Shown piece by piece: positions 6,319 through 38,307 of a DNA stretch of 64,000 nt (position 1 is its first letter; each line of letters begins with the position of its first letter). This DNA comes from Micavibrio sp. (GTDB lineage Bacteria > Pseudomonadota > Alphaproteobacteria > UBA2400). The notes beneath the pieces were generated by a model that did no database searches, was not told where the DNA came from, and worked only from the letters and a program-made list of their open reading frames with translations. The position numbers and the translations under genes were made by a program. Location: positions 58,193 to 122,192 of the forward strand of contig JBEIQE010000001.1 of NCBI GenBank assembly GCA_040376705.1. Direction: 5' to 3'.

Positions 6319-9300
6319 ATGCGCCGTACGGGCCAATCGTTACTGCTACGCTCGTCCATCAGCGTGATTGCGCTGATGGCATGGCTGGCGCCTGCAGTTG
6401 CGCTGGCCGATGAAGTTTCACTGCGCGCCGGCGAGCGCGGCAATGGCGTGCGTATGGTGTTCGAGTGGCCGCAGGCGGTGGAGCATTCAGCCCAGCTTTC
6501 CGGCAATCAGCTCAAGCTTACATTTGCGCGCCCGGCTGAGGCCGATGTTGCAAGCCTCACATCGCGCCTTTCTGCATGGGTGAGCGGGGCCAGCCGCTCA
6601 GCCGATGGCCGCGAGATTACCATTACCCTCAAGCAGCCCGCCAAACTGCAAAGTTTTATCTCCGGTACACGTGTGATTGTTGATCTCACGCCCGCTGCCG
6701 CCATCGCCTCAACCTCGCCAACCCCGGGCGCTGATGCACCGGTAGCTATACCCGCTGCTCCCGCTGTGCGTGATGCCGAGGTTCGTATTGGCCGCCATCA
6801 GGGCTTTAATCGCGCGGTGCTCAGGCTGGCGTCGCGCCCCACGATCAACACCAATGGCAACAAGCTTACATTAACCGCGCCCGCCGCCCGCCGCCTGACC
6901 GCCCGCCAGCTAGAGCAGTTAAAATTACCGCAGGTGGAAGATGTAAAGCAGGCTGTTGCAAACGACAGGCTAACACTGACCTTCACCCTCAAGCCGGGGG
7001 TGCATACAGATAGCTTCCGTGTGCCCTCAGGTATCGGAATTAACTTCAACGACGCGCCAGCTGCCGCAGCAGCGCGCCCTGCCGACCGTGCACCAGCACC
7101 GGTAGCGGCCCCCGCACGCAGACCGGTTGAAACAGCCCCGATTACTGCCGAAGCTAAACCACCAGTAACAGAAACCGCCGAAACGCCTGCGCCTGCGCCT
7201 GTAGCACCTGCAACTGCAGCCCCTGCGCCAGTTGCTGCGGCAACGCCCCCAGTTACAACGCCGCCTGCAGTTGTGCCGCCGGCCGGCACTGTAACAACAC
7301 CAGCTGTAAGCATTCCCGCCTCAACCGATGGGGAAGAGTCTGTAGCCACGGTGGTTGCCAGCACGCCAGCTGAAGAGGCAGCACCACCTGCACCTGTGAT
7401 GCCTATGGATGCACCCTTACCGCCGCTTGAGATGACCGTAGGCAAGGATACGCCGCTGGCCGTGTTCCAGCGCGGTGATGCTTTGTATGTGGTGGTGAAT
7501 GAGAAGAACACCCCGCGTGAGCTGATCCCGCTGGTCGGTAGTGCCATGGCCTCATCTCCGCGTGTTGAGCTACTTGCTGGTGAGGGAGGGCGTATTATCC
7601 GTATCGACCTCACCGATAAAAAAGTATTCCCCAGCATCAGCGCAACACCAACCGGCTGGAAGATTACTTTTGGCGAAGCTGCCGTAACGACTGCTGCGCT
7701 GGCCATTAAAGAAGATCCAGACTATTCGCTTGGGCCACGCCTGTTTGTAACGACAGGTAATCCCGCCAGCCCTGTGCTGTTCGCTGACCCCGTTGTAGGG
7801 GATACGCTGGCTGTTATTCCGGTACCTGCAGCCGCTACTGGTGTGGTGAGCCGTATTCGCACGGTGCAGTCTGAGCTGCTGCCGAGCTATCAGGGCCTTG
7901 TGATCAAGTCATGGACCGAGGACCTCAATGTCATTAGCACGGCTGAGGGGATCGAGATCAGTGCTCGTAGCGGTTTCAAACTGGCCGAGCGCTTGCTGGG
8001 CGAGGTTGACCCGGTGGTACCGCTTTCAACGCCCACCCCCACAAATGACTCAGGCATCAACACCAGCGCATCGCCCTATATGCCGCCGTCGTTTAACTTT
8101 GAGGCCATGGGCCAGCCTGAAATCGGCAAGTTCACGCCAGAGCGTGAGCGCTTGCAAAACGAAATCATCAAGGCAGGGGCAGGCGAAAAGCGCCGCGCAT
8201 GGCTTGATCTGGCCAATCATTTCTTCATGTATGGCATGCCGACCGAGGCGGCTGCCATCTGGCAGGACCAAGCCAAGGATAATGCTGATCTGGCTAGCAG
8301 GCCCGAGTTTGCGCTCATTCGCGCGATTGCGGCCTTCTCATCTGGCACGCTTGATAACGTGAAGGCTGCGCTTACCGCGGTAAACCAGCCGACCACCGAC
8401 AGCTCGCTCTGGCATGGCATGCTCGCCGCTAAGGAGAGCGATTGGGTGGCTGCAGCCGAGCGCTTCCGCCCAGCGCTCAACCGCATCTGGGAATATCCCG
8501 AGCCGTATCTCAGCCGTTTGGCGATAGCCGCGATTGATACCTCGCTGCAGACGCAGGATTATGCACAGGCCGAAATGTTGCTGGGCAAACTGAATGACCG
8601 CTACCGCATGGAAGAGCGCAAGCCCACGCCCGCAGTTGAGTACCTGACCGGTGCGCTTGACTTTGGCCGTAACCGTACCGATGAGGCCCGCGCGCATCTT
8701 GGCAGTGCGGCGCAAAGCTGGGACCAGCTGTGGCGTGCCCGGGCCGAGCTGATGCTGATTGATGCCGATATTAAGGACAACCGCAGCCGTCCGGCAGATC
8801 TGGCACAGCGGCTTGAGCGCCTGCGCTTTGCCTGGCGCGGGGATGGGCTTGAGTTCGAGGTGCTGCATCGCCTCGCCAAACAGCATATTGCAGCTGGCGA
8901 TTTTGCCGCCGCGTTTGAAGACTATGCGCAAATGGCCACCAAGTATCCGGCCCTTGCGACTAAAGCGAATGTCGATGCCGAGCAGAAGGCTGCCTTTGTG
9001 CGCATCTTCCAGGGTGAAGACCGCGACCGTACGCCATCTTACAGCCAGCTCGCCATCTGGGACCGTTACCCTGAGTTCCGCCCCACGCAGCCAAGCGTGC
9101 TTGATGATATCAACCTTTATCTGGCAGAGCGTGTTGCGGGCATCGACCTGCTCGACAGGGCTGCCGGTTTTTATAACGATGTGCTCAAGAGCACTACCGA
9201 TGCTGCCGCCCGTGCAGCTTTGGGCACCAAGATCTCTGGTCTTTATCTGCTGGATCACAAATATACCGAAGCGATTGAAGCGCTCGATGTGACCGAGCCC

Positions 9301-9867
9301 AAACCGGTTGAAGGCCAGCCTTCGGTGCTGCGTGAGGATGCCAAGGACGAGCGCCGCCAGTTACGTGCCCGCGCTATTGTGGGCCTTGGCAAGCCGGATG
9401 ACGCATTGGCGCTGCTGGTGAATGATTATAGTGAGCCTGCCACCCGCTTGCGGGCCGATATCAACTGGAAAACCCGCCGCTGGGCCGAGGCTGCAGCAAC
9501 CCTTGATGCCTTGATTGGCGATGCTACCGCCAGCGGCCAGCCGCTGAGTGATGAAAAGTCGGGTCTTATCTTGAAGCGTGCAACGGCACTGGCTCTGGCG
9601 GGCGATCGCACGGCTTTGCGTGACTTACGGATTAAATATGGTGAGCTGATGACCGCCACGGTTGATGGCTCGGCCTTTGCGCTGCTTACCCGCCCTGAAG
9701 TGGCCGGCGGTCTGCCAGACCGCGCGACACTCAACGGCCGTGTGGCTGAGGTTGATTTGTTCCAGAAGTTCCTTGAGCGTTACCGTAGCCCGGCGGCGGC
9801 AGCGCCGAGCGGGGAGACCAGCTCAGCGGCTGTAACGCCTGCAACACCGGCGGCTACGCAGCCGTAA
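6319..9867 (+). CDS. Large exported TPR-repeat protein with Pro/Ala/Thr-rich linker (1182 aa)
   Basis: N-terminal signal peptide (LMAWLAPAVALA). There is a roughly 120-aa proline-rich low-complexity region. The C-terminal half has TPR-like repeats. It is embedded in the flagellar cluster. Confidence 0.6.
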   Translation: MRRTGQSLLLRSSISVIALMAWLAPAVALADEVSLRAGERGNGVRMVFEWPQAVEHSAQLSGNQLKLTFARPAEADVASLTSRLSAWVSGASRSADGREITITLKQPAKLQSFISGTRVIVDLTPAAAIASTSPTPGADAPVAIPAAPAVRDAEVRIGRHQGFNRAVLRLASRPTINTNGNKLTLTAPAARRLTARQLEQLKLPQVEDVKQAVANDRLTLTFTLKPGVHTDSFRVPSGIGINFNDAPAAAAARPADRAPAPVAAPARRPVETAPITAEAKPPVTETAETPAPAPVAPATAAPAPVAAATPPVTTPPAVVPPAGTVTTPAVSIPASTDGEESVATVVASTPAEEAAPPAPVMPMDAPLPPLEMTVGKDTPLAVFQRGDALYVVVNEKNTPRELIPLVGSAMASSPRVELLAGEGGRIIRIDLTDKKVFPSISATPTGWKITFGEAAVTTAALAIKEDPDYSLGPRLFVTTGNPASPVLFADPVVGDTLAVIPVPAAATGVVSRIRTVQSELLPSYQGLVIKSWTEDLNVISTAEGIEISARSGFKLAERLLGEVDPVVPLSTPTPTNDSGINTSASPYMPPSFNFEAMGQPEIGKFTPERERLQNEIIKAGAGEKRRAWLDLANHFFMYGMPTEAAAIWQDQAKDNADLASRPEFALIRAIAAFSSGTLDNVKAALTAVNQPTTDSSLWHGMLAAKESDWVAAAERFRPALNRIWEYPEPYLSRLAIAAIDTSLQTQDYAQAEMLLGKLNDRYRMEERKPTPAVEYLTGALDFGRNRTDEARAHLGSAAQSWDQLWRARAELMLIDADIKDNRSRPADLAQRLERLRFAWRGDGLEFEVLHRLAKQHIAAGDFAAAFEDYAQMATKYPALATKANVDAEQKAAFVRIFQGEDRDRTPSYSQLAIWDRYPEFRPTQPSVLDDINLYLAERVAGIDLLDRAAGFYNDVLKSTTDAAARAALGTKISGLYLLDHKYTEAIEALDVTEPKPVEGQPSVLREDAKDERRQLRARAIVGLGKPDDALALLVNDYSEPATRLRADINWKTRRWAEAAATLDALIGDATASGQPLSDEKSGLILKRATALALAGDRTALRDLRIKYGELMTATVDGSAFALLTRPEVAGGLPDRATLNGRVAEVDLFQKFLERYRSPAAAAPSGETSSAAVTPATPAATQP

Positions 9868-10282
9868 GCGCTCTTGCTTTGTTTTTGCAATTATACGCAC
9901 TTGCCACAAACCCGGCAGTGAATGCGCTATCGATAAGTGCTTTGGCAATTTGGGTCTCGGGCATAAAGGCGCGTAGACTGTAACTGGCGCCAGTTAAGGC
10001 AAAATTCCAATGCAGGTTAGCAAGCTGGCCATAAGCCTGTTTGGGGCTGGCGGCAGCTTGCTGGTTGATGAGCTTATATGTACGGCCAAACGCGCGCGCA
10101 TTGCGATAAGTCAGGTAGGCATAGAGCGCGGTGAGTGGAAGGGTTTTATGCGGGGCAGGTACAGCACTGCGGGGCGGCATCAGCTGGCTTAGTGTGCTGA
10201 TAACGCAAAAGCTGGTAGCAATACCGGCACCTACCAGTCCGCCAATCAGCTTGGGTCGCATGGTATCGGCTGTCTGGCTCAT
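9854..10282 (-). CDS. Small membrane-anchored protein, paralog 1 of 3 (unknown family)
   Basis: 142 aa with an N-terminal TM. It shares the motifs Y-x-x-Y-R-N, DW-N/D-F and AY-x-x-x-S-x-Y-x-x-K-K-x-A with the two adjacent ORFs. Confidence 0.5.
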   Translation of the reverse strand: MSQTADTMRPKLIGGLVGAGIATSFCVISTLSQLMPPRSAVPAPHKTLPLTALYAYLTYRNARAFGRTYKLINQQAAASPKQAYGQLANLHWNFALTGASYSLRAFMPETQIAKALIDSAFTAGFVASAYNCKNKARALTAA

Positions 10283-10710
10283 GCTGCAGGCGGCGGCAGG
10301 GCCTTGGCCTTTTTCTGGTGGTCGTAGGTGCTGTAAAGCATATACGCACCAATAGCAGCTGTAAAAGCTGTAGCGACGAGATGGCTCTCAGGCGCCCTGG
10401 TCGCAAAGTCGATAGCGGCTACACCCAGCAGGCGGCTGGTGTTCCAGTCGGCCACAGCTTCATAACGGTGGAAGTTAAGCGGTGTATGCAGCTTGGTATC
10501 GTTCATGAAGCCGGTATAAGCGACCAGATCACGCTTGCTGCGCTGGAGCATATATACATAAGCGCCTGCCACCAGCGTATTGCGGATGGGCCGCTCCTTC
10601 AGATCATCAAGATTAAAGACATTGTCCCCGAACAACAGCAGGCCGCCCACCATTACCACTGCGCTAATGGTTTTGCTCACTTTCATGGTGGCGGGGTTGG
10701 GCAGGGTCAT
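10279..10710 (-). CDS. Small membrane-anchored protein, paralog 2 of 3
   Basis: 143 aa. It overlaps paralog 1 by 4 bp and shares the same conserved motifs. Confidence 0.5.
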   Translation of the reverse strand: MTLPNPATMKVSKTISAVVMVGGLLLFGDNVFNLDDLKERPIRNTLVAGAYVYMLQRSKRDLVAYTGFMNDTKLHTPLNFHRYEAVADWNTSRLLGVAAIDFATRAPESHLVATAFTAAIGAYMLYSTYDHQKKAKALPPPAA

Positions 10711-10715
10711 GATGC

Positions 10716-11147
10716 CTAGTCGGTAATTCTGGGGCCAGCCAGTTTCTTGTTCTGATAGGCACTGTGAATGCAGTAAGCACCAACCGCCACATCAATAGCG
10801 CCGCGCAGGAGCTTGGCTTCGGGCTGGGCAGTCAAATGATCGGCAGCAACAACCAGTAAGGTACGGCCAAAGTCCCAATCGAGTTGTGCCTGCTGGCGGT
10901 AAAGCTCAGCGCCCTTGAGGGGAGTGCTGTTTGGCGTAGCGCGATGATAGTTTAGCAGGCTGCGGCCATTACGGTAAGTCATATAGCCATAAGCAGCCAG
11001 CAGGCCAAAAGTGCGTGCCGGGCTTTCATCTCTGGCTTTGGTATCGGTTGCCAGACTGTGCAGGCTCATGGCGCAGGCGCCGATGGCAAGGGCACTGAAC
11101 AGTTTGTTGAAAACGGGGCCGGGTGCATAGGGGGCTGGCTTGCTCAT
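10716..11147 (-). CDS. Small membrane-anchored protein, paralog 3 of 3
   Basis: 143 aa with the same motif set (YMTYRNGRS, DWDFGR, AYQNKKLA). Confidence 0.5.
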   Translation of the reverse strand: MSKPAPYAPGPVFNKLFSALAIGACAMSLHSLATDTKARDESPARTFGLLAAYGYMTYRNGRSLLNYHRATPNSTPLKGAELYRQQAQLDWDFGRTLLVVAADHLTAQPEAKLLRGAIDVAVGAYCIHSAYQNKKLAGPRITD

Positions 11148-11228: not shown

Positions 11229-11636
11229 TTAGTGGTGCAGGTCGTCGTAGATCATTTTAACCAGCTCTTCCTTTTGCCGTGCACCATATTCGGCATTAAA
11301 CGGCTGGCCCCATACCGGCGCTGGCCACGCGGCATCGCCAATACAGCGGGCAATTACATGCACATGCAGCTGGCGGGTGATATTGCCGATGGAGGCAATA
11401 TTAAGCTTGTCTGGCGTTGTGAGCTTGCGCAGCACATGCGCAACTTTATTCACTTCGCGCAGCAGCGTGCCTTGATCAGCCTCGGAAAGGTCAATCAGGT
11501 CGTAAACTTCGGTGCGGCGGGGCACCAGAACCAGCCATGGCCAGGTCGCGTTTTTATGCAGACGTACGCTGCACAGCGTGAGATCGCAGATAAACCAGGT
11601 GTCACGTTCAAGGTTCGGGTCGAGCGCAAAGGTCAT
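11229..11636 (-). CDS. HIT family hydrolase
   Basis: Carries the histidine triad HVHVHVIAR (HxHxHxx). 135 aa. It overlaps the fliP stop by 4 bp. Confidence 0.8.
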   Translation of the reverse strand: MTFALDPNLERDTWFICDLTLCSVRLHKNATWPWLVLVPRRTEVYDLIDLSEADQGTLLREVNKVAHVLRKLTTPDKLNIASIGNITRQLHVHVIARCIGDAAWPAPVWGQPFNAEYGARQKEELVKMIYDDLHH

Positions 11637-12439
11637 GGCGTAGCTCCCACGCCGTAGCTTTGTACCAGCGAGCCCGCCAGCATGTTCCAGCCATCAATCA
11701 ACACAAAGAAGATGATCTTGAACGGGAGCGAGATAACCACTGGTGGCAGCATCATCATACCCATGGCCATGAGGACCGAGGCCACTACCATATCGATTAC
11801 CAAAAACGGCAGGAAGATGAGGAAGCCGATTTCGAATGCGCGCTTGAGCTCCGAGATCATGAAGGCAGGAATAAGCGCAACCAGTGGCGTCTCTTCCGGC
11901 TTCATTTCAGCAGTGCTGTACTTGCCCATATCGAGGAAGAGCTGCAGGTCCTTATCGCGTACATGCACCATCATGAAGGCGTGGAACGGCTCGACTGTGG
12001 CCTCATAGGCGGCTTTCTCGTCTATCGTTTCGTTCATGTACGGCTCGATGCCGTTTTCCCATGCCTTGGTAAAGGTTGGTGCCATGATGAAGAAGGTCAG
12101 GAACAGCGCAAGCGAGATCAGCACCTGATTGGGCGGTGTCTGCTGCACACCAAGCGCCGAGCGCACGAACGAGAGCACCACGATAATGCGGGTAAAGCTG
12201 GTAACCATCACCAAGATGCCCGGCGCAAGCGAGAGCACCGTAAGCATGGCGATAAGCTGGATCATACGGGCGGAGCTGGATGCGCCGCCTTCCTGCGCAG
12301 GGCCGCCCATATCGAGCGACAGGGTCTGTGCAATAGCGGGCAAGGCCAATAGCAGGAAGAGGCTGATCAGGCACAGCTTGAACAGGGCCGGCAGGTGCGG
12401 GCGCAGGTTGTGCACAAATTTCATTGGGGGCAGCTTCAT
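11633..12439 (-). CDS. fliP: Flagellar biosynthesis protein FliP
   Basis: Canonical FliP segments are present: MIQLIAMLTVLSLAPGILVMVTSFTRIIVVLSF and GVQQTPPNQVL, with 4 TM helices. Confidence 0.9.
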   Translation of the reverse strand: MKLPPMKFVHNLRPHLPALFKLCLISLFLLLALPAIAQTLSLDMGGPAQEGGASSSARMIQLIAMLTVLSLAPGILVMVTSFTRIIVVLSFVRSALGVQQTPPNQVLISLALFLTFFIMAPTFTKAWENGIEPYMNETIDEKAAYEATVEPFHAFMMVHVRDKDLQLFLDMGKYSTAEMKPEETPLVALIPAFMISELKRAFEIGFLIFLPFLVIDMVVASVLMAMGMMMLPPVVISLPFKIIFFVLIDGWNMLAGSLVQSYGVGATP

Positions 12440-12720
12440 GATGCGGGAGCCTCGGGGGGAATGTTGCGCTCAATAACTTGGGATTCGCCGGTAGATGAGA
12501 CGAGCAGCAGATGCTCGGCCTTGTCGCGGCGCACGAGGATGAGCTGATGGCGGGCGTCTATCTGCTTCCACTCAATCACGCCTAGGCGGTTGTTGGGATT
12601 ATTGCGGTTAAGCATCGGCACGTTGCGGCCAAACCGGTTGAGCAGCCACGCGCAGAGACCCAGTAGCGACAGGGTAAAGACAAGCGCCATGGCAAGGCGC
12701 AGCAGCAGCTCCAAATTCAT
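12436..12720 (-). CDS. fliO: Flagellar biosynthesis protein FliO
   Basis: A small single-TM protein immediately upstream of fliP and overlapping it. It has the FliO-like L-x-V-x-R segment (RHQLILVRRDKAEHLLLVSS). Confidence 0.6.
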   Translation of the reverse strand: MNLELLLRLAMALVFTLSLLGLCAWLLNRFGRNVPMLNRNNPNNRLGVIEWKQIDARHQLILVRRDKAEHLLLVSSTGESQVIERNIPPEAPAS

Positions 12721-12792: not shown

Positions 12793-13128
12793 TCAAGCCG
12801 ACTCGTCGCTCTTGCCCAGTGCCGCTGCGCTTTTGGCATAGGCGGTGCTGGCCTTCAGGCGGGTGGAAAGCTGCTCGATGCCCGCCTTGGCGGCCTCGCG
12901 CTGGCGGCCAAAGTCCTGCGCCAGTTCGGCCAGCGCCTGATCGATTTCGAGCAGAGCCGGTATATGCATACGGCCCTCTTCCTTGGGCAGCTTTAACAGC
13001 CCGGCGTTGAGGGCCTCGAGCTTGGGGCTCAGCTCGCTCATATCGGCGGCATTGCCCTCGCTCATGAAGGTGCGTAACTGCTCGATGGTATTTTTAACGT
13101 CGGTCAGCTGGTCAGCAAATTCAGTCAT
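12793..13128 (-). CDS. Hypothetical helical protein in flagellar operon
   Basis: 111 aa, acidic, predicted coiled coil. Its start overlaps the preceding FlhB-C-like gene. Confidence 0.4.
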   Translation of the reverse strand: MTEFADQLTDVKNTIEQLRTFMSEGNAADMSELSPKLEALNAGLLKLPKEEGRMHIPALLEIDQALAELAQDFGRQREAAKAGIEQLSTRLKASTAYAKSAAALGKSDESA

Positions 13129-13394
13129 TTTTCGTTCCTTCCGTTGGCCTCGTAAACACGGGCCAGAATATCGCTTACCGCCTGCAGGGCTTCGAGCGGG
13201 ATGCTCTCCTCAAGATCGAGCGCCACAAGAATTTGCGCCAGATCGGCATCTTCACGCACTTTCACGCCATTGGCAAAGGCGAGGGCAAGAATCTCTTCGG
13301 CTACCTTGCCATAGCCGCTGGCCAATATCTGCGGCATGTCGCGGCTGCTTCCCAAAGCAGCGGCAATCTGGCGGCGGGGCTTCTCATCGCTCAT
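13125..13394 (-). CDS. FlhB C-terminal domain-like (EscU/YscU/HrcU family) small protein
   Basis: 89 aa, similar to the post-cleavage FlhB C-terminal domain (VAEEILALAFANGVKVREDADLAQILVALDLEESIPLEALQAVSDILARVY). It has no NPTH motif. Confidence 0.65.
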   Translation of the reverse strand: MSDEKPRRQIAAALGSSRDMPQILASGYGKVAEEILALAFANGVKVREDADLAQILVALDLEESIPLEALQAVSDILARVYEANGRNEK

Positions 13395-14902
13395 TTAATG
13401 TATAGTCCCAGCCATGCCGGCCGCGTTTCAGGCATATACAGCAAGCCTGCAGCTATAAGCAAAATCAGGGCCAGCGTGATCAGGGCTACCAGCCCGCCAG
13501 CCGCACTTATTGTAGCGCGCATGGGCATAACCCGCTTGATTGCCCATTGGCCAACCAGCCCTACGGTGGCCCACCCGAGCAGAGCCAGAATAACAGCAAT
13601 TGCGCCATCTACCGCCATGGGTGGGACCGGCAGGTCAAAGCGCGGGGTATTGAGCCAGCTGTAGTAAATACCGCCAGCAATAACGGCGCTAATCACAGAG
13701 GCCATAACGCGCGGCATCAGCGTGGTGCTGGCAAATACCTTTTTAAGCTGCGCATGAATGGCCATGGCCAAGGGGGCTGTGAGGCCAAACGGATAGCGCT
13801 GGCTAAAGAAGCGGGCAGGCTTTTCCCCCCGGCCCATGGCCTCGGCCAGCTCGCGGATGAGGCGGTATTTCTTGCTCATGGCCACCAGCGTACCAGCGTT
13901 CAGATCGGCGGGCACATGGCTGAGGGTATCGTCCAGCAATGGCGGGAATTCGGACAATACAGGCTTCATGCCTACAGCAATTACATCGTGAATTTCGCCC
14001 TTGAGGTTTAGGTTGTAACGGCCATAGGGCAGCAGGGCATCGTAATCTATAGCTGTACCAACCGGCGAGGGCATGGGCGTAATTACCGCATGCCCGCGTG
14101 CCAGCCCTTCGGCTCCCAGGGCATCAATCACCTGCGTTACGCCTTTGGGCGTAGAGGTGAGTGAGCCGAGCATGAAGCGGCCCTGTGCGGCCACTTTAAG
14201 TAATGTTTCCTCAACAAAAAAGCCGTGTCCCTGGCACTCGATACACAAGGTCAGGCCCGTCGCACGGCAATTGGCGCAGGGGGTGCGGCCTTTGGCCTGG
14301 CAGGTATGGCAGGCCAGTTTCATCTTGCCGCGGCAGTTAGTGCAGGGGCTGTTACGATCGTTCGGATTAACACCATTGCCACTACAGGTTGGGCACCACA
14401 TTTCGCGCGCACCGTTACAGGCCCTGCAGTTGACCTCGCGCTGGCCGTGGCACTGGCGGCAGGTTTCATTCTTCTGGCCACGGCAGATATCGCACGGCAA
14501 AACCAGCGCTACGCGCTTGGTCTGTTTGGCCAAATCCCAGTCGCCCTGCTCAAGGCCCCAGCCGCCGGTGGGGCTTTTTGCCAGCCGTGCGCGTAGCTCT
14601 TCAACCCAGCTCGGATCTTCGGCCAACTCGCTATGGAAGCTGCCGATGTAGCCCGCCAGCTCTTCGCGGCTCTTGAACACGGCAGCTTCGTTGCCCTTGG
14701 GCAAACCCGGCACGCGGGTTTCGGTCGGGACCACCTGCAGCTCAAGCATCAAGCGGCCCGGAAGATGCAGGTCAGTCTCCTGAACAGTTTTGAGTTTGAT
14801 GTCCTCGAGCGAGTAGCCGTTGCCAACCAGAAGGCGGCGGAGCAGGGCCAGGGTTTTGGCCTCGGTATCAGAAGATTTGGGGCCTTCTGGAATATTGCTC
14901 AT
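13391..14902 (-). CDS. Membrane protein with DnaJ-type CxxCxG zinc-finger repeats (8 CxxC motifs) and C-terminal multi-TM region
   Basis: Residues about 140-230 read CDICRGQ..CRQCHGQ..CRACNGA..CPTCSGNG..CTNCRGK..CHTCQAK..CANCRATG..CIECQGHG. The C-terminal roughly 120 aa are hydrophobic. The start overlaps the csrA stop (ATGA). Confidence 0.6.
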   Translation of the reverse strand: MSNIPEGPKSSDTEAKTLALLRRLLVGNGYSLEDIKLKTVQETDLHLPGRLMLELQVVPTETRVPGLPKGNEAAVFKSREELAGYIGSFHSELAEDPSWVEELRARLAKSPTGGWGLEQGDWDLAKQTKRVALVLPCDICRGQKNETCRQCHGQREVNCRACNGAREMWCPTCSGNGVNPNDRNSPCTNCRGKMKLACHTCQAKGRTPCANCRATGLTLCIECQGHGFFVEETLLKVAAQGRFMLGSLTSTPKGVTQVIDALGAEGLARGHAVITPMPSPVGTAIDYDALLPYGRYNLNLKGEIHDVIAVGMKPVLSEFPPLLDDTLSHVPADLNAGTLVAMSKKYRLIRELAEAMGRGEKPARFFSQRYPFGLTAPLAMAIHAQLKKVFASTTLMPRVMASVISAVIAGGIYYSWLNTPRFDLPVPPMAVDGAIAVILALLGWATVGLVGQWAIKRVMPMRATISAAGGLVALITLALILLIAAGLLYMPETRPAWLGLYIK

Positions 14903-15177
14903 TACTCGTCTTCATCCTCGGTTTTGGCGGTTGGAGGGGCCGGCGGTAGCGGCGAGGGCTTGACCGGCAGCATGAGGTTCGAAAGGTTGGGGGCATTTTC
15001 TGCCGCGGCACGGTTTTCCGCCTGGATGCGGTCGAATACTTCCTTACGCATTACCGTAACGTCAGGCGGGAAGTTGAAGCCCAGTTTTACGACCTTGCCG
15101 GAGACAGAAACCACAGTAACTTCAACATCTTCGTTGATTACGATGGTCTCTCCGATCTTTCGGGTCAAATAAAGCAC
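14902..15177 (-). CDS. csrA: Carbon storage regulator CsrA (with Pro-rich C-terminal tail)
   Basis: MLYLTRKIGETIVINEDVEVTVVSVSGKVVKLGFNFPPDVTVMRKEVFDRIQ matches the CsrA fold signature. Confidence 0.8.
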   Translation of the reverse strand: MLYLTRKIGETIVINEDVEVTVVSVSGKVVKLGFNFPPDVTVMRKEVFDRIQAENRAAAENAPNLSNLMLPVKPSPLPPAPPTAKTEDEDE

Positions 15178-15303
15178 TGAGTTGGCCCACTTCCTGCAAA
15201 GCCTGTGATGAGCCCAAAAGGCTCCTATTGAGTATTAACAGGCCGGACCCGTTCTGACAAAGCGAAAAGCTGCAGAACCCCAGCCTTGAAGGGTAGGGAT
15301 AAC

Positions 15304-15699
15304 ATGGACCTCAACGGATTAGCGTTGTTCCAGCAAATGGAACAAAAAATGCACTGGCTTTCGGCCCGTCAGACTGTTCTGTCGGAAAACATCGCCAATG
15401 CCGATACCCCGTACTATCAGGCACGCGACCTCAAGCCGTTTGCTGCTGAAATGGCCAACGCCATGCCGGTTGTGCGCACCAATGTGAGCCATATCTCGGG
15501 CGGCAACGCCTCAACCGTGCCGGTCGTGGCGCGCGACCGCAACTTCATCGAGATCAGCCCTGATGGCAATCAGGTGTCGCTCGAAGACCAGCTGACCAAG
15601 GTTGCCGACACCGGCATGGAATACCAGATGCTCACCAATCTGTACCGCAAGCAGCTGAGCATGATCAAAACCGCCCTTGGGCGTAACGGTTCGGCATAA
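15304..15699 (+). CDS. flgB: Flagellar basal-body rod protein FlgB
   Basis: VLSENIANADTPYYQARDL is the rod N-terminal motif. The ATG at 15304 has an aggga RBS. An alternative TTG start at 15286 is given in the ORF track. Confidence 0.85.
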   Translation: MDLNGLALFQQMEQKMHWLSARQTVLSENIANADTPYYQARDLKPFAAEMANAMPVVRTNVSHISGGNASTVPVVARDRNFIEISPDGNQVSLEDQLTKVADTGMEYQMLTNLYRKQLSMIKTALGRNGSA

Positions 15700-15713
15700 G
15701 GGGAGGACGCATC

Positions 15714-16130
15714 ATGAGCAACGATCTCGTAAATTCCCTCTCCATCTCATCCTCGGGTATGAAGGCGCAGAGCCTGCGTATGCGGGTGATTTCAGAGAAT
15801 ATCGCCAACGCCAACTCAACCGGCCTGACGCCGGGTGATATGCCCTACCGCCGCCAGGTGGTGAGCTTTGAGAACGAGCTGGACCGCGCTACCGGCGCCA
15901 ATATGGTCAAGGTGAGCGAAGTGGGTAAGGACCCCTCGCAGTTCCAGCGCAGGTTCATGCCCGGTCACCCAAGTGCTGATGCTGATGGCTATGTGATGAT
16001 GCCGAACGTCAATACCCTGATTGAGACCATGGATATGCGTGAGGCGCAGCGCAGCTACGAAGCGAATTTGAATGTTATCGAAGTTTCGCGTATGATGATC
16101 ATGCGCACTATCGATATGCTGAGAGCTTAA
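15714..16130 (+). CDS. flgC: Flagellar basal-body rod protein FlgC
   Basis: MRVISENIANANSTG and the C-terminal EMVNMI-like region NVNTLIETMDMREAQRSYEANLNVIEVSRMM are present. Confidence 0.9.
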   Translation: MSNDLVNSLSISSSGMKAQSLRMRVISENIANANSTGLTPGDMPYRRQVVSFENELDRATGANMVKVSEVGKDPSQFQRRFMPGHPSADADGYVMMPNVNTLIETMDMREAQRSYEANLNVIEVSRMMIMRTIDMLRA

Positions 16131-16144
16131 GGGAGGGCTGACAC

Positions 16145-16450
16145 ATGGTAAACATGAACCAGATTGCAGCCGCCGCTTACGGTGCTACCTCCAAGCTGCC
16201 AACCGCTGCCGGTGAGGGCGAAGCCCTGGGCGGCTCGAGCTTTGCCGATCTGGTCTCTTCAGCCCTTGATGACGCGATTGGCAGCCAGAAGGCCGCCGAG
16301 CAGATCTCGCGCGATGCCGTTATCGGTAAGGCCGATATCAATGATGTGATCCTCGCCGTACAGAACGCCGATGTGGTGCTGAATACCGTTGTCGCCATCC
16401 GCGACAAGGTAGTAAACGCCTATCAGGACATCCTGAGGATGGCCATTTAA
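16145..16450 (+). CDS. fliE: Flagellar hook-basal body protein FliE
   Basis: 101 aa, with the C-terminal FliE motif NTVVAIRDKVVNAYQDILRM. It follows flgC. Confidence 0.75.
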   Translation: MVNMNQIAAAAYGATSKLPTAAGEGEALGGSSFADLVSSALDDAIGSQKAAEQISRDAVIGKADINDVILAVQNADVVLNTVVAIRDKVVNAYQDILRMAI

Positions 16451-16492
16451 GGCGGGATTTGCCATTAAGGCCAATCGTGTTATGCTGGCTGC

Positions 16493-16771
16493 ATGACTGA
16501 AGCGGATATCATCCAAATCACCCGCGACGCGATCTGGCTGCTGCTGGTCGTGTGCTCGCCGCTTCTTATTATCGCCATGGTGGTGGGTTTCGTTATCTCG
16601 CTCATTCAGGCGCTGACGCAAATTCAGGAAGCGACTATCGCTTTCGTGCCTAAAATCATCATCATGTTCCTCTCGCTCATGTTTTTGCTGCCGTTCATGA
16701 CGCAAAAGATGATCGACTTCGGCAACCGCCTCTCACCGATGATTATTCAGGTTGGTGCCTCACAAGAGTAG
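16493..16771 (+). CDS. fliQ: Flagellar biosynthesis protein FliQ
   Basis: 92 aa with 2 TM. LLIIAMVVGFVISLIQALTQIQEATIAFVPKI is canonical FliQ. Confidence 0.9.
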   Translation: MTEADIIQITRDAIWLLLVVCSPLLIIAMVVGFVISLIQALTQIQEATIAFVPKIIIMFLSLMFLLPFMTQKMIDFGNRLSPMIIQVGASQE

Positions 16772-18299
16772 TGCCTGCAGGCAGGGTCTTCTCCCAAGCC
16801 GAGAGCGCTTTTTCTAGACGCTCAGCCTCAGCCGGATTGGCGAGGTAGAGGCTTACTGTATTGTGAGCTACCACAACGCTATCCCGATTAAAGCTAAATT
16901 CCCCTACTTTGCTCCAGCTGGCAGGTATCTGGTTGGTGAACCAAGGATCGTAAAGAATGAAGAGGCTAACCCCGTGGCGCGTAGCATAATCGGCCAGTGC
17001 CGCCTGATTCCATTTGCTGCCAAAGGCGCGTAGCTGTCTGACCTCCTCAGAGCCAAGGCCAAAAATATCATGCACCTGGTAGGGGTTTTGCCAACTTAGG
17101 TAGCCAATGTCATTCGCACCAACCGGGCCTTGCCAGAAGTTTTTTATCAGGCGCGTGTATTGCACCTGCTGCCAATAGATATCCTGACTGGCGTAGGGCA
17201 TTTTTGCTGTTGTCAGTAAACTAGCGTAAAAACAAAGCATGAATGCAAAGGCCCAGATGCAGCGCGAAGCAGGGCTGAACTTTATTGTCAGTATAACTGG
17301 GCGCAGGGTGTAGAGAAGCGCTATGAAGCCAAAGGCAAGTAGATAGCTATGATAGCGGTCACTCCAGATAACTCGCCCCCCCAGTATATGGGCAAGAATG
17401 CAAAGCATGGCCAGCAGAGCAATACGGTTTCGGTAAATCACCATCGTGATTGACAGGAAAACCAGTAAGATAATCAAAATGGATGACTGCGGATGCAGGA
17501 GGTTGAGCACGACACGCTCAAGAAAGACCTGAAACGGTTCGGCACCATTAATCGCGTCGGTTTTTATAAGAACCGAGCCCGCTACAAGAGGTAGGCCAAG
17601 TGAGTACAGATAAGCTGCATGTGCCAGCTGGATGGCTGTTTCTGTGGCGCCCACCAGCACGGCTACCAGTCTGTAACGCGTCGTCAACAGCCATAACAGG
17701 GTAAGGCCGAACAGCGCTATGCCTTCGTAGCGGATCATGGGCATAAGAATAAGCGCCGCCCAGAACCACTTGGGCAGAGGTTTATTCTCATTTAGATCGA
17801 TCAGTGCTGAGAGTACAGCCAACACGGTAGTAATATGCAGGCTGTGTTCCATGCCCAGCAGCAGCATGGTATAAATGTTGGTGGCCAGAGCAAAAAAGGC
17901 TACTAGCCAGCCAGTCGCATATGTTGGGTAAAGGTTGGTGAGGTTCAGCTGGCCAGAGATGCGGCACAGCAGCCACAGGCTGATGGCCGCAGGCACCAGG
18001 TTGAGAAACAGTGGTGCCAGCAGAAAATCAGCAAATGGCACCAGCAACCACGGATAGATTATTGATGAAGAGGCTGCCGCCGGAATGCCTGCCGTCGTAC
18101 CGTATTGGCCCGGCAAGAGGCTGGCGATAGCCAAATGAATATAGGTATCGTCTATCGGATAGGTGAAATGTCCCTCGGTCATATACAGGCTGCACGCCAG
18201 AAAAATGGCGATGATCAGCCCAGAGAGGGCAAGGGTTTGGGCATAAATACGCGGTGATGTACTTGAGTAAACCATATGCTTAACTTCGCCAGTGCTCAT
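16743..18299 (-). CDS. Multi-pass membrane protein with C-terminal soluble domain, paralog A (GT-C-like?)
   Basis: 518 aa. About 10 TM helices are followed by a roughly 180-aa C-terminal domain. A DD motif after the first TM (FTYPIDDTYIHL) is present. It is highly similar to the adjacent paralog B. It is antisense to the fliQ/fliR operon, and its 3' end overlaps the fliQ 3' end. Confidence 0.6.
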   Translation of the reverse strand: MSTGEVKHMVYSSTSPRIYAQTLALSGLIIAIFLACSLYMTEGHFTYPIDDTYIHLAIASLLPGQYGTTAGIPAAASSSIIYPWLLVPFADFLLAPLFLNLVPAAISLWLLCRISGQLNLTNLYPTYATGWLVAFFALATNIYTMLLLGMEHSLHITTVLAVLSALIDLNENKPLPKWFWAALILMPMIRYEGIALFGLTLLWLLTTRYRLVAVLVGATETAIQLAHAAYLYSLGLPLVAGSVLIKTDAINGAEPFQVFLERVVLNLLHPQSSILIILLVFLSITMVIYRNRIALLAMLCILAHILGGRVIWSDRYHSYLLAFGFIALLYTLRPVILTIKFSPASRCIWAFAFMLCFYASLLTTAKMPYASQDIYWQQVQYTRLIKNFWQGPVGANDIGYLSWQNPYQVHDIFGLGSEEVRQLRAFGSKWNQAALADYATRHGVSLFILYDPWFTNQIPASWSKVGEFSFNRDSVVVAHNTVSLYLANPAEAERLEKALSAWEKTLPAGTTLVRHQPE

Positions 18300-19843
18300 T
18301 TATATTGATGCCTTATAAGTGTTGTGCCGGCTGGCAGCGTCTTCTGCCATGCCATGAGGGCTTTTTCAAGCCGCTCGGCCTCAGCTGGATTGGCGAGATA
18401 AAGACTTACATAATTGTAGGCAACATTAACGTGTGGCCGGTTGAAGCTGAAATCTGCAACCTTGACCCAGCTGTCAGGCAGCTGTCCTGTAAACCAGGGG
18501 TCATAAATAATAAACAGGCTTAGATTATATCTGTTTGCATAGTCGTCCAGCTCTGCCGGATCCCAGCGATTACCATGCACGCGCAGCTGTCGCACTTCCT
18601 CAGAGCCGAGGCCGTAAATATCGTAAATCGGATAGGGGCTTTGCCAGCTTAGATAACCTATGTCGTTTGCACCAACTGGGTCTTGCCAAAAATCGCGTAC
18701 CAGCCGCGTGAATTGTACCTGCTGTAGATAAATATCCTGACTGGCATAAGGGGTTTTAAGCGTTGTCCAGAAGCTGCTGTGATAACTGGCAACAAAAACA
18801 ATCAGCCACAGTAGCCGGGAAATTGCATTGAACTCTATGCGAGCGATAGTTGGGCGCAGCAAATACATCAATACGATGAAGCTGAACGCGAGCAGATAGC
18901 TTTGGTAACGATCGCCCCATACAATTTTTCCCCCAATAAAATGAGCAATAATGCAGATAAACGCCAGTGCCACGATGCGATTGGCATGTTTGCCTGGCGC
19001 GAACAGCAGAAGTGCTGAGATAATAAGTAATATCCAGCTTCGTGGCTGAATCAGGTTATTGCGGATACGATCAAGAATACTGATGATTGGAGTGTCTATG
19101 TTGTTTACGCCGGTTTTTATCAGAATTGAGGCCGCTACCATGGGCAAGCCAGATGAATGCATATAAGCGGCGTGAATAAGGTGGACGCCCATCTCTATCC
19201 CGCCAACTATTAGGGCTGACATCCTGTATTGTGTGGTGAGCAGCCAGAGCAATGTAATGCCGAACATCGCAAATCCTTCGTAACGGATCATCGGCATCAG
19301 GATGAGTGCTGCCCAGAACCATTTGGGCAGTGGCTTCTTGTCATTCAGGTCGATCAGGCCGGAGAGTACAGCCAGAACAGCTGTAATATGCAGGCTGTGC
19401 TCCATCCCCAGCAGCGGCATACTGTAAAGGTTGCCCGCCAAACCAAGCAGCAAAATTATAGGGGCTGTTGCCCACGCGGGATAAAGAGTGATGAGGTTAA
19501 GCTGGGCCGAGATGCGGCAGAGCAGCCATAGGCTGGTTGCAAGTGCCAGCAGGTTAAGTACAAGTGGGGCAAACACCAAGTCGGCAAAGGGTGCCAGAAG
19601 CCACGGATATATAAGTGAGGATGAGGCTGCTGCCGGAATACCTGCCGTTGTGCCATATTGCCCCGGCAAGAGGCTGGCGATGGCCAGATGGATATAGGCA
19701 TCGTCAACCGCATAAGTGAAATGCCCGTCAGTCAGGTACAGGCTGCAACCCACAAGAACGGCAATAACCAGGCCCGAGAGGGCAAGCGTTTGGGCGTAAA
19801 TACGGGCAGAAGGCATGACGGCACATATAGCTGAGAGCGCCAT
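18296..19843 (-). CDS. Multi-pass membrane protein with C-terminal soluble domain, paralog B (GT-C-like?)
   Basis: 515 aa. It aligns along its full length with paralog A (FTYAVDDAYIHLAIASLLPGQYGTTAGIPAAASS...ANPAEAERLEKAL). Confidence 0.6.
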   Translation of the reverse strand: MALSAICAVMPSARIYAQTLALSGLVIAVLVGCSLYLTDGHFTYAVDDAYIHLAIASLLPGQYGTTAGIPAAASSSLIYPWLLAPFADLVFAPLVLNLLALATSLWLLCRISAQLNLITLYPAWATAPIILLLGLAGNLYSMPLLGMEHSLHITAVLAVLSGLIDLNDKKPLPKWFWAALILMPMIRYEGFAMFGITLLWLLTTQYRMSALIVGGIEMGVHLIHAAYMHSSGLPMVAASILIKTGVNNIDTPIISILDRIRNNLIQPRSWILLIISALLLFAPGKHANRIVALAFICIIAHFIGGKIVWGDRYQSYLLAFSFIVLMYLLRPTIARIEFNAISRLLWLIVFVASYHSSFWTTLKTPYASQDIYLQQVQFTRLVRDFWQDPVGANDIGYLSWQSPYPIYDIYGLGSEEVRQLRVHGNRWDPAELDDYANRYNLSLFIIYDPWFTGQLPDSWVKVADFSFNRPHVNVAYNYVSLYLANPAEAERLEKALMAWQKTLPAGTTLIRHQYK

Positions 19844-26132: not shown

Positions 26133-27422
26133 TTAGCCCATTAAATCAGTGTGTTGGTTTGATATGCCGGGCCAGGGCGCGGCTCCCGGCAAACGGCTTT
26201 TTATAGCGCTTACCGCACGCTGCCACCATTTGGGATCGGGGCTGTTTTCAAGCTGCGTGGCGGCGAAGGTCACTTCCATGAAGTAGTCGGGGATATGGCT
26301 TGAGTGAATAACCGCGATTGACGGAATATCCTTAGGCGCAGCGGCGCGGGCCATGGCGATGGTCGGTGCGTCGCCTTCTGGCAGGGTGCAGCCTACCATC
26401 TTGAATGCATCGCCTTGCCTGACCATCTCGAAGGTAGCCATAAGGGCGGGCTCAGCCTGCTCATCTGCCTTGAACAGATAGACATGCCGCATGCCATCGC
26501 TCAGTTTGGCAGGGCGGTTGAACATATGGGTCACACTGAGCGGCAATAGCTCTTCAAGTGTGGCCTGCTTCTGCCGCGCAATATCGCGAATGCGGTCAGC
26601 CCGCACATCAAAATTTTCCTGCGCCTTGGCGATAATGTTATTGGTAACCTCTTCGCTCATCACCGTGGGAGGGGCGGTCTCATCTACCGGGTTATCGGGG
26701 TTATCATAGGTCAGTAGCAGGGGCGGCTGGGCGATGCCAATAGCTACCGCCGTGCGGCGTTGATCGACTGAATTGATAATCACTTCATCGCGCGTATAGG
26801 TAATCGCGAGTTGGGCGGCCTGAGCATATTCATCCGGATACAGAACATGGCCTTTAGTAGTTTCAGCGCCAGTATAGCCTGCGCAAATCCATGCAACGCT
26901 TTCGAGCAGGCTCAGGTAGGTGAGCTTGCTGCCCAGCTGGTCGCGGTAGGTATTACGCAGATCAGTATTCTTAGGGTCAGCTTTATAAAGTTTTGCGATT
27001 AACTCGGTATGGCCTTCAACATAGCCGCTCATGGCCTTAGCTTGCTCAGCCATTCTCTCAAAATTATCATCTCCGTCTTCAAGTAGCGAGTTAAGGTCGA
27101 AACGACCGCCACTCAGGCTGATGATGGCTGTGCCGTTAGTGCTTACAAACTCCGGCTTCTCGGCTTTGAACTTGGCAAGGCGCTCGTCGTACAGCGGGCG
27201 CAGCGCATCGTTGAGCAGAATGGTGGTGCAGTCTTTCACCAGATTACGGGTACGTTCGGCAGCACGCTGAATTTCAGCACCAAGGCGGATCATTTTGTCC
27301 GGGTGGTTTTCGGCCAAACGCTGGCGTGCAGTTGCGTGGATCTCGTCCTTACTGGCGTCGGGTGTAAGCCCAAGGAACGCATAGCGGTCGAAAATATAGT
27401 CAACGCCTTCAACTGGATCCAT
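26133..27422 (-). CDS. J-domain (DnaJ N-terminal domain) protein with roughly 350-aa unknown C-terminal region
   Basis: The N-terminus YAFLGLTPDASKDEIHATARQRLAENHPDK has the HPD tripeptide of J-domains. There is no zinc-finger or DnaJ C-terminal domain. Length is 429 aa. Confidence 0.65.
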   Translation of the reverse strand: MDPVEGVDYIFDRYAFLGLTPDASKDEIHATARQRLAENHPDKMIRLGAEIQRAAERTRNLVKDCTTILLNDALRPLYDERLAKFKAEKPEFVSTNGTAIISLSGGRFDLNSLLEDGDDNFERMAEQAKAMSGYVEGHTELIAKLYKADPKNTDLRNTYRDQLGSKLTYLSLLESVAWICAGYTGAETTKGHVLYPDEYAQAAQLAITYTRDEVIINSVDQRRTAVAIGIAQPPLLLTYDNPDNPVDETAPPTVMSEEVTNNIIAKAQENFDVRADRIRDIARQKQATLEELLPLSVTHMFNRPAKLSDGMRHVYLFKADEQAEPALMATFEMVRQGDAFKMVGCTLPEGDAPTIAMARAAAPKDIPSIAVIHSSHIPDYFMEVTFAATQLENSPDPKWWQRAVSAIKSRLPGAAPWPGISNQHTDLMG

Positions 27423-37020: not shown

Positions 37021-38277
37021 ATGGGTGTAGGTCTTCCCCGCGGGGCTAATACGTCAATTCAGGCTGCAATTGCCCCTGAAAACGGCATTTTCCGCGTGAA
37101 TCTTGAGTATAACGGGGATAATCCTGCGCGTCCGTCGATCGATGCGGTCGCCTTCCTGCTCACCGATACCGGCAAGGTTCGCGGCGACTCCGATATGGTT
37201 TTCTATAACCATAAAACCATCGCCGAAGGCGGGGTGGAGATGCTCGATGGCGCAGATGTCGCCGGCCTGCGCCAACAGCCTTTTATCATCGACCTCAACA
37301 AGCTGCCAGCTGGGATTGTACGCATCTGCTTCTGCCTGGTTGCGGATGGCACCGGTGTGCAGTACATCGCCCAGCTCAGCCGTATGGCCATTCGCCTCAT
37401 GGGTGGCACCACCCGCACCGAGGTTGCCAGTAGCAGCCTTGAGCTGGCCGGCGCCGCCAAGGAAACGGCGCTTGTATTGGGCGAACTTTATTTGCGTAAT
37501 GGCGAATGGAAGTTCAAGTCCATCGGGCAGGGGTATGAGCAAGGTCTGGCTGCTTTGGCGCAGAGCTATGGTATTGTAGTTGCCGAAGCTGCGCAGGCCA
37601 CCGGCACCATGGCCCGCCCTAACGAAACACTGCCGCCTTCAGCGGCTGATCGTTCGGCCATTCCCAAGCAGCGGTTTGACCGGCCGGCTATGGGGTTTGA
37701 CGAAATCGTGATCAATCTGGTGTGGAACGCCACGCCGCCGGAAGAGCCGATAACCGATGCGCCGGTGGCTAAAAAGGGCCTGTTCAGCTCCATCGTCGCG
37801 CCGTCCAAGCCGCGCCCGATCGATCTTGACCTCTGCTGCCTTTACGAGCTGAACGATGGCTATCGTGGCGTGATCTCGGCTTTGGGCGATAATTACGGTG
37901 CCTTCAATTCGGCCCCGTTCATGGAGCTGATGGGTGATGAGCGCAAGGGCACCGGCACCCAAGGCGAGGTTATCCGTATCAACGGTGTGCGCTGGAACGA
38001 AATTACCCGCATTCTTGTTTATGCCATGATTTTTGAGGGCTCGCCTAATTGGGCACTGGCATCGGGGCGCTGCGTTATCCGTGTGCCGGATCAGATGCCG
38101 CTGAACGTGAAGCTCGATCAGAATGTGAACGACAAGCGCGCCTGCACCATTGCCTTGATTGAGAATGATGGCGGCCACATCAGCATCCAGAAGCGGGTTG
38201 AGGCGTTCAAGAACCCGCGCGAGGTCGATCTGTATTACGGTTGGGGGCTGCGCTGGGGCGCAGGCACCAAGGAATAG
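37021..38277 (+). CDS. TerD-domain protein (two-domain, 418 aa)
   Basis: The N-terminal half aligns with the downstream TerD (VAFLLTDTGKVRGDSDMVFYNH...GELYLRNGEWKFKSIGQGY). The C-terminal half is a second, diverged TerD-like domain. Confidence 0.65.
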   Translation: MGVGLPRGANTSIQAAIAPENGIFRVNLEYNGDNPARPSIDAVAFLLTDTGKVRGDSDMVFYNHKTIAEGGVEMLDGADVAGLRQQPFIIDLNKLPAGIVRICFCLVADGTGVQYIAQLSRMAIRLMGGTTRTEVASSSLELAGAAKETALVLGELYLRNGEWKFKSIGQGYEQGLAALAQSYGIVVAEAAQATGTMARPNETLPPSAADRSAIPKQRFDRPAMGFDEIVINLVWNATPPEEPITDAPVAKKGLFSSIVAPSKPRPIDLDLCCLYELNDGYRGVISALGDNYGAFNSAPFMELMGDERKGTGTQGEVIRINGVRWNEITRILVYAMIFEGSPNWALASGRCVIRVPDQMPLNVKLDQNVNDKRACTIALIENDGGHISIQKRVEAFKNPREVDLYYGWGLRWGAGTKE

Positions 38278-38307
38278 AAACAGCGAATTAAACCAGAGGA
38301 GTAGAAT

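Follow-up and report, generated by a model that had tools for sequence, protein, structure and literature searches.

A csrA gene overlapping that of a conserved membrane zinc-finger protein, next to an flhX-like gene, in the flagellar cluster of a Micavibrio-like clade

Control of CsrA outside the Gammaproteobacteria is attributed to FliW, a protein that antagonises it in Bacillus, Campylobacter, Borrelia and other bacteria. In the Alphaproteobacteria, CsrA control appears to be essentially unstudied; our literature searches gave no paper on this subject, on CsrA in Micavibrio (a genus of predatory bacteria), or on the protein family and the gene cassette described below. We analysed a stretch of 64,000 nucleotides (nt) from Micavibrio sp. 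(contig JBEIQE010000001.1 of assembly GCA_040376705.1, positions 58,193 to 122,192), hereafter called the window, and its coordinates are counted from the first letter. Here, csrA overlaps the gene of a cysteine-rich membrane protein of 503 amino acids (aa), which we call ZnF, and this gene is followed by an flhX-like gene.

To our knowledge, the role of FlhX is poorly understood in any organism. A stand-alone C-terminal part of FlhB is the defining feature of FlhX of the Helicobacter/Pseudomonas type (10.1101/2021.08.29.457346). DnaJ-like zinc-finger chaperones that are associated with membranes have been described, namely ZnJ6 and ORANGE (PMC7865324, PMC12063368). A zinc-finger antagonist of an RNA-binding protein is known from Bacillus, where anti-TRAP (RtpA), a relative of the DnaJ cysteine-rich domain (CRD), attaches to a small oligomeric RNA-binding regulator and prevents it from binding RNA (PMC2896485, PMC4027176).

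From the list of open reading frames (ORFs) and the sequence we placed csrA at 14902–15177 (GTG start, 91 aa; also supported by Pfam and NCBIfam models) and the ZnF gene at 13391–14902 (ATG start), both on the minus strand. Their junction reads GAC GAG TAA TG, and the last A of the csrA stop codon is also the A of the ZnF start codon, giving a 1-nt overlap (TAATG). The ZnF stop codon in turn overlaps the start of the flhX-like gene (13125–13394, minus strand, 89 aa) by 4 nt (ATGA). We observed csrA directly upstream of the ZnF gene, with stop/start overlaps of 1–8 nt, in seven sequenced loci (the window, L001, L004, L007, L012, L017 and L021), across which the identity of ZnF to the window protein drops to 33%. 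In every linked locus that reaches that far, flhX lies directly downstream of ZnF. The original prediction had described the overlap of the csrA stop with the start of the cysteine-rich ORF and had proposed the adjacency in relatives as a check; both were borne out.

Some of these loci were sighted more than once, L001 also as L002, L003, L008 and L016, and L004 also as L005 and L006. L008 is labelled Micavibrio sp. UBA2400 and L007 uncultured Pseudobdellovibrionaceae; the only named relatives of the linked clade are metagenome-assembled genomes (MAGs) labelled Micavibrio. A metagenome scan with alignment A3 gave three loci and a genome scan two, and a word-indexed search with the broad alignment A2 gave nothing beyond 15 close homologues. 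In seven further cases, matches to csrA and ZnF came from contigs of equal length, so that their pairing on the same contig is inferred; an example is a 2,639-nt contig with a 98-aa CsrA and a 506-aa ZnF. Among 149 family representatives, none was a fusion of ZnF with CsrA, FlhX or the product of p111, the next gene downstream.

The 503-aa ORF is a genuine gene. Its product has exactly 16 cysteines, all of them within eight CxxC motifs (residues 137, 148, 159, 170, 187, 198, 209 and 220), and eight or more such motifs were found in none of 20,000 residue shuffles. All 16 are invariant across 15 homologues of 42–100% identity. The original prediction had counted eight motifs of the form CxxC(x)G; the number was right, but only five are CxxCxG and the remaining three are CxxCxxxG or CxxCxxG. 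An AlphaFold2 model built with the 15-homologue alignment (mean predicted local distance difference test score 87.2) gave an alpha/beta region at residues 12–136, short hairpins at 137–227, a beta-rich region at 228–320 and helices at 322–368, all in the part predicted to be cytoplasmic, followed by three long hydrophobic helices at about 399–490.

The zinc part (residues 137–227; 14222–14494, minus strand) comprises two tandem modules, for which four zinc sites are predicted. In a PDB fold search its hairpin fold superposed on BSD2 (6ekb) with 1.5 Å over 55 residues and 31% identity. Consistent with this, the profile of ZnF homologues matched the cysteine-rich domain of E. coli DnaJ (1exk, E 2.9e-6), as well as other DnaJ/Ydj1 zinc regions and BSD2; anti-TRAP (3lcz) was matched weakly (E 0.024). 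The Pfam BSD2_CRD model scored 20.7 on ZnF itself, under its cutoff of 27. From the profile matches and the modelled fold, we conclude that this part is a bona fide DnaJ/BSD2-type domain in duplicate, each hairpin module having four CxxCxGxG-like repeats, with zinc binding predicted. The idea that the motifs equal twice the DnaJ cysteine-rich domain thus gained support from both sequence profile and predicted fold.

The membrane part of ZnF (residues ~399–493; 13424–13708, minus strand) has three transmembrane (TM) helices, predicted by a hydropathy scan at about 399–417, 431–455 and 467–490 and seen as long helices in the model, which agrees with the polytopic C-terminal region proposed earlier. 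We infer a topology with the N-terminal 375 residues in the cytoplasm and the C-terminus outside, because a signal peptide is absent, the loop between TM2 and TM3 (456–462) is rich in Lys and Arg, and zinc-thiolate sites are expected in the reducing cytoplasm. Pfam and NCBIfam hold no whole-protein model for ZnF.

Several known identities were considered for ZnF and rejected. It is not a DnaJ/Hsp40 protein proper, as Pfam and NCBIfam gave no J-domain match and the DnaJ matches are confined to the zinc region (profile positions 167–243). A FliW-like or DnaJ C-terminal-domain-like fold was ruled out because all matches in the PDB searches are limited to the zinc region; with FliW (PF02623) ZnF has neither sequence nor fold in common, and with anti-TRAP it shares the motif alone. 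Elsewhere in the window (26133–27422, minus strand), a 429-aa protein has an N-terminal J-domain-like match of 25.8 bits, just under the Pfam cutoff of 27.8, and is otherwise unannotated; it could in principle be a J-protein partner of a zinc-finger chaperone.

The 89-aa gene downstream of ZnF matched Pfam Bac_export_2 with E 2.2e-9 (37.5 bits, cutoff 24.4) at profile positions 271–335 of 335. The match is thus confined to the final 65 positions of the FlhB profile, which makes the gene a free-standing counterpart of the C-terminal subdomain of FlhB; as in FlhX, it consists of the part that follows the cleavage site and is devoid of the membrane domain. It also matched TIGR00789 (flhB_rel; E 2.7e-13, 49.9 bits), under the cutoff of 117.

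The identity of the window CsrA is firm and unambiguous by sequence. It matched Pfam CsrA (PF02599) with E 3.9e-21 (75.2 bits, cutoff 27), passed both NCBIfam equivalog cutoffs (NF002469, 77.9 against 73; TIGR00202, 75.3 against 70.1), and gave PDB sequence matches to RsmE (2jpp) and to the CsrA of the Geobacillus FliW complex (5dmb_D) with E down to 1e-13. The core (residues 1–52) is followed by a helix extension, 'IQAENRAAAE', and by a Pro-rich, acidic tail. We take L2, L4, R6/K7, V40, V42 and R44 to be the RNA-contact residues, forming two binding regions, as defined by mutagenesis in E. coli. In the alignment the window CsrA carries L2, L4, R6, K7, V40, V42 and R44.

The Pro-rich tail, which the original prediction had called unusual, is real and is conserved among the ZnF-linked CsrAs with the pattern 'ENRAAAENAPDLxxLxLPxxPxPLPP…acidic'. 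These proteins also have 'VVSVSGK' in common (the SVSGK signature), whereas the ZnF-less alphaproteobacterial CsrAs have 'VVEVRGK' and variable tails. P0230, which we picked for its SVSGK signature, proved to be ZnF-linked, and P0212, with VRGK, proved to be unlinked. That the CsrA signatures track the presence of ZnF is suggestive only, because the linked clade is probably monophyletic. We also looked in the window for RNA antagonists of CsrA; Rfam gave one tRNA only and the density of GGA showed no sponge-like region. In L021, a flagellin leader 3.6 kb from csrA (10238–10345, minus strand) has three GGA motifs, one of them in an AAGGAG Shine-Dalgarno sequence, a layout similar to that of flagellin leaders under CsrA control. 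As the GGA count is about that expected by chance and the fold z of −1.4 is not significant, CsrA control of this leader was dropped as evidence.

Downstream of the three genes, p111 (12793–13128, minus strand), an ORF of 111 aa, overlaps flhX by 4 nt and had no match in Pfam or NCBIfam scans. It is an alternative candidate partner of CsrA or FlhX. After a gap of 72 nt come fliO (12436–12720; weak Pfam and TIGR03500 matches) and fliP (11633–12439; assigned from its position and length against the Pfam-annotated FliP of the syntenic L001 and L019), both on the minus strand like the cassette. Upstream, flgB, flgC, fliE and fliQ (15286–16771, plus strand) were assigned from ORFs and synteny with Pfam-annotated genes in L001, L004, L012, L019, L020, L021 and L022. 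They read divergently from csrA, an arrangement common to all related loci. The intergenic region between csrA and flgB (15178–15303) presumably carries the csrA Shine-Dalgarno sequence, AGGAAG, along with the promoters. A scan for promoters and terminators gave nothing above chance, with a single weak sigma-70-like match on the minus strand of this region.

Next, we looked for FliW. The Pfam FliW model matched none of the 60 ORFs scanned in the window, a set that takes in almost every ORF judged likely to be coding, in agreement with the original prediction; nor did the called genes of the Pfam-annotated loci (L001–L006, L009–L015 and L019–L022) include one. Neither Micavibrio nor Rhodospirillales genera are listed in the supplement of PMC4682653. 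In B. subtilis CsrA, N55 is important for FliW binding, and I14 and D41 for inhibition by FliW (10.1101/2020.07.02.184341). The alignment of the window CsrA with the Geobacillus CsrA that was crystallised with FliW extends to residue 62 ('IQAENRAAA' against 'IQAENNAAS'); the window protein has both N55 and I14, which do not vary within the clade, and has Thr instead of Asp at position 41. N55 is invariant in all aligned ZnF-linked CsrAs and is also present in each ZnF-less alphaproteobacterial CsrA that we fetched. As N55 and I14 are retained, a FliW may be encoded elsewhere in the genome. From the sequences, retention of N55 cuts both ways, and could reflect either such a distant FliW or use of the same CsrA face by another partner.

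These data led us to a tentative reading, to which we give somewhat less than an even chance, in which ZnF is a membrane-tethered zinc-finger module that binds proteins and acts on CsrA, on FlhX or on both. ZnF would work as a zinc-stabilised holdase or adaptor, like the stand-alone DnaJ-type zinc-finger proteins, and its tandem zinc modules would serve as the protein-binding surface, as in BSD2, ZnJ2, ZnJ6, PSA2 and ORANGE. Its clients would probably be the products of its own cassette. ZnF may keep CsrA, bound by its conserved tail of Pro and acidic residues, or the soluble FlhB-like FlhX, or both, at the inner membrane close to the flagellar export gate, and translation controlled by CsrA would thereby be coupled to the state of the export apparatus. 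In an anti-CsrA variant, ZnF would be a new kind of CsrA partner that captures CsrA by this tail and frees or withholds it depending on how the export gate stands, as sensed through FlhX; by analogy, this would parallel the function of FliW, CesT and anti-TRAP with a structure unrelated to that of FliW. A role of ZnF as CsrA antagonist or anchor, with direct binding to CsrA, is the more specific claim within this reading, and we regard it as unlikely.

The closest CsrAs outside the linked clade are those of L019 (a 3.27-Mb contig), L020 (Limimonas halophila) and L022 (another MAG). In these three loci (8001–10073 in L019, 8001–8303 in L020 and 4005–4298 in L022), csrA is in the same place, divergent from flgB-flgC-fliE-fliQ-fliR-flhB, and we found neither ZnF nor fliW beside it. 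The gene order in L019 is csrA-flhX-107 aa-fliO-fliP, where an unannotated ORF of 107 aa occupies the position of p111. In L020, csrA is separated from flhX, and in L022 it is alone. Since relatives have csrA in the same place without ZnF, the ZnF gene is a lineage-specific insertion into a neighbourhood that was already devoid of fliW. A replacement of fliW by ZnF at this locus, as the 'instead of fliW' of the original prediction implies, is not supported, and ZnF is not a general substitute for FliW. The simplest history that the sequences suggest is that csrA at the head of the operon is older, and that the ancestor of the Micavibrio-like clade subsequently gained, between csrA and flhX, a copy of a housekeeping ZnF gene. 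Since then, this gene at the head of the flhX-p111-fliO-fliP operon has remained translationally coupled on both sides.

The position of csrA in these relatives also favours a different explanation, that ZnF acts as a chaperone in the assembly of the type III export gate (FliO/P/Q/R, FlhB) or of exported subunits, makes no contact with CsrA and lies beside csrA only because csrA already headed the operon. In line with this, a p111 homologue follows the cassette in L001, L007 and L017 as in the window, with fliO-fliP next where annotated (the window and L001). Characterised DnaJ-type zinc-finger proteins are mostly factors for the assembly of complexes, several of them membrane complexes (PMC5818400, PMC7865324, PMC4806229), and the wider ZnF family, described below, has no link to CsrA. 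However, in L004 and L021 csrA, ZnF and flhX have stayed together although p111, fliO and fliP no longer follow them; all seven loci retain the overlap with the csrA stop codon; and the ZnF-less relatives build flagella without ZnF. Maintenance of the triad despite operon rearrangement, as against the separability of csrA from flhX in ZnF-less relatives, was counted in favour of ZnF acting on CsrA or FlhX. We consider an export-gate chaperone rather unlikely, though it is the strongest of the alternatives.

An exhaustive profile search placed ZnF in a large family: at E ≤ 1e-30 and with clustering at 50% identity there are at least 261 clusters, and most of the matches listed span the full length. 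ZnF is the flagellar-operon paralogue within this larger uncharacterised family. We looked up four members at ≤28% identity, one of them from MAGs labelled Micavibrio sp., and all were in housekeeping surroundings, with trmE, rho, hemE/hemH, greA and ATP synthase genes as neighbours; within 6–8 kb of these four there were no csrA or flagellar genes. Two proteins, P0018 (508 aa) and P0020 (471 aa), have family scores between those of the csrA-linked loci and the unlinked family, and have six and four CxxC motifs, respectively, indicating that zinc modules can be lost. Genes with a TerD domain occur near the housekeeping ZnF homologue in L010, and the window has a TerD-domain pair of 418 and 195 aa at 37021–38895 (plus strand). 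This proximity is probably coincidental.

Several of our observations weigh against an action of ZnF on CsrA or FlhX. Exactly eight CxxC motifs are present in 131 of the 141 full-length family representatives, and in the contexts examined the architecture is the same without a csrA or flagellar neighbour. Because other members are not beside csrA or flagellar genes, the core activity of ZnF is not specific to CsrA. A per-position comparison of conservation showed clade differences that are scattered, with a mild peak at residues 341–380 and no sharp clade-specific surface. A single insertion, passed down within a ZnF-linked clade that is probably monophyletic, may account for both the conserved gene order and the CsrA signatures without repeated selection. 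Finally, in the PDB searches no ZnF domain outside the zinc part matched a known fold, so that the 'holdase' label comes from a single region of ~90 residues.

If all linked loci stem from one insertion, ZnF may be a passenger with no flagellar role, a housekeeping copy that landed once, was inherited vertically and does the same general job as its paralogues. The features found across the family (eight CxxC motifs, a GNG motif, YP-G and three TM helices) are indeed unchanged in the linked clade, and the distant members are apparently stand-alone genes in their housekeeping contexts. A passenger, however, would be expected to be lost or relocated in some lineages, and the position and overlapping junctions of ZnF are kept down to 33% identity while surrounding genes were reshuffled, which makes this explanation quite improbable. 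A redox or zinc switch, in which ZnF changes conformation when its 16 cysteines are oxidised or its zinc is lost and in this way reports envelope or oxidative stress to the flagellar programme, is very improbable: four predicted Cys4 sites in one exposed region and the thiol oxidoreductase activity of some DnaJ-type zinc fingers (oxidizing ZnJ6, PMC7865324; DnaJ on DksA, PMC8262869) would suit it, but the cassette is without a sensor domain, output domain or redox partner, and no sequence feature favours redox sensing over structural zinc.

Other parts of the window showed the following. Two tandem, clearly paralogous ORFs of ~515 aa lie between fliQ and fliR (16743–19843, minus strand); the one scanned had no Pfam match, and the equivalent gap in L001 is filled by a PAP2_3 protein. 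Three tandem ORFs of 142–143 aa without a Pfam match (9854–11147, minus strand) follow fliP and a HIT-domain gene and are read in the same direction. An Ala/Pro-rich protein of 1182 aa (6319–9867, plus strand) had only a weak AMIN match; proteins of similar size adjoin fliP in L019 (1171 aa, no Pfam match) and L020 (1083 aa, faint TPR_19 match), and it is apparently a conserved part of this flagellar cluster that has no name yet. Further away (44141–45175, minus strand), an ORF matched the MCP signalling domain at residues 20–93 and a Cache domain after it. As this is the reverse of the usual receptor order, the chemoreceptor gene may be truncated, rearranged or mis-framed.

In a set of alphaproteobacteria, therefore, csrA heads a flagellar export operon with no fliW nearby, and in one Micavibrio-like clade a conserved membrane zinc-finger protein is wedged between csrA and flhX. 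Should ZnF prove to bind CsrA, it would add a third structural way in which proteins control CsrA and would link translational control physically to the export machine in the membrane; were FlhX the partner instead, ZnF would offer a first way into the function of FlhX. Either way, the work defines a bacterial family that is large (at least 261 clusters) and uncharacterised, in which a tandem DnaJ-type zinc module is set in a new architecture.

Among the described systems, FliW resembles ZnF in the link of its gene to csrA: the ZnF gene, too, is tied to csrA inside a flagellar cluster, and ZnF is on this ground a candidate CsrA partner. The window CsrA is also like FliW-type CsrAs in having N55, I14 and a C-terminal extension. 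With the FlhX proteins HP1575 and PP_4329, the 89-aa window protein shares the matches to the C-terminal end of FlhB and to the flhB_rel model; in Pseudomonas, however, flhX pairs with fliK2, whereas here it pairs with csrA and ZnF. Anti-TRAP shows by its mechanism that a zinc-finger protein can antagonise an RNA-binding regulator, which here would be CsrA. It is nevertheless a soluble protein of 53 residues that has a single zinc site, assembles into trimers and dodecamers and targets TRAP, and its similarity to ZnF is limited to the CxxC motifs. The closest likeness in the zinc part is to the DnaJ CRD and to BSD2, ZnJ2, ZnJ6, PSA2 and ORANGE, all of which have CxxCxG(xG) repeats ~11 residues apart; BSD2 and ORANGE have no J-domain, as in ZnF, and ZnJ6 and ORANGE are membrane-associated. 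The stand-alone DnaJ-like zinc-finger proteins have one module, whereas ZnF has two in tandem (eight motifs, four predicted zinc ions). Unlike in the BSD2-type proteins, these modules are inserted between two unmatched regions (1–136 and 228–375) and anchored by three C-terminal TM helices, and the host is a non-photosynthetic bacterium that has the gene in a flagellar operon.

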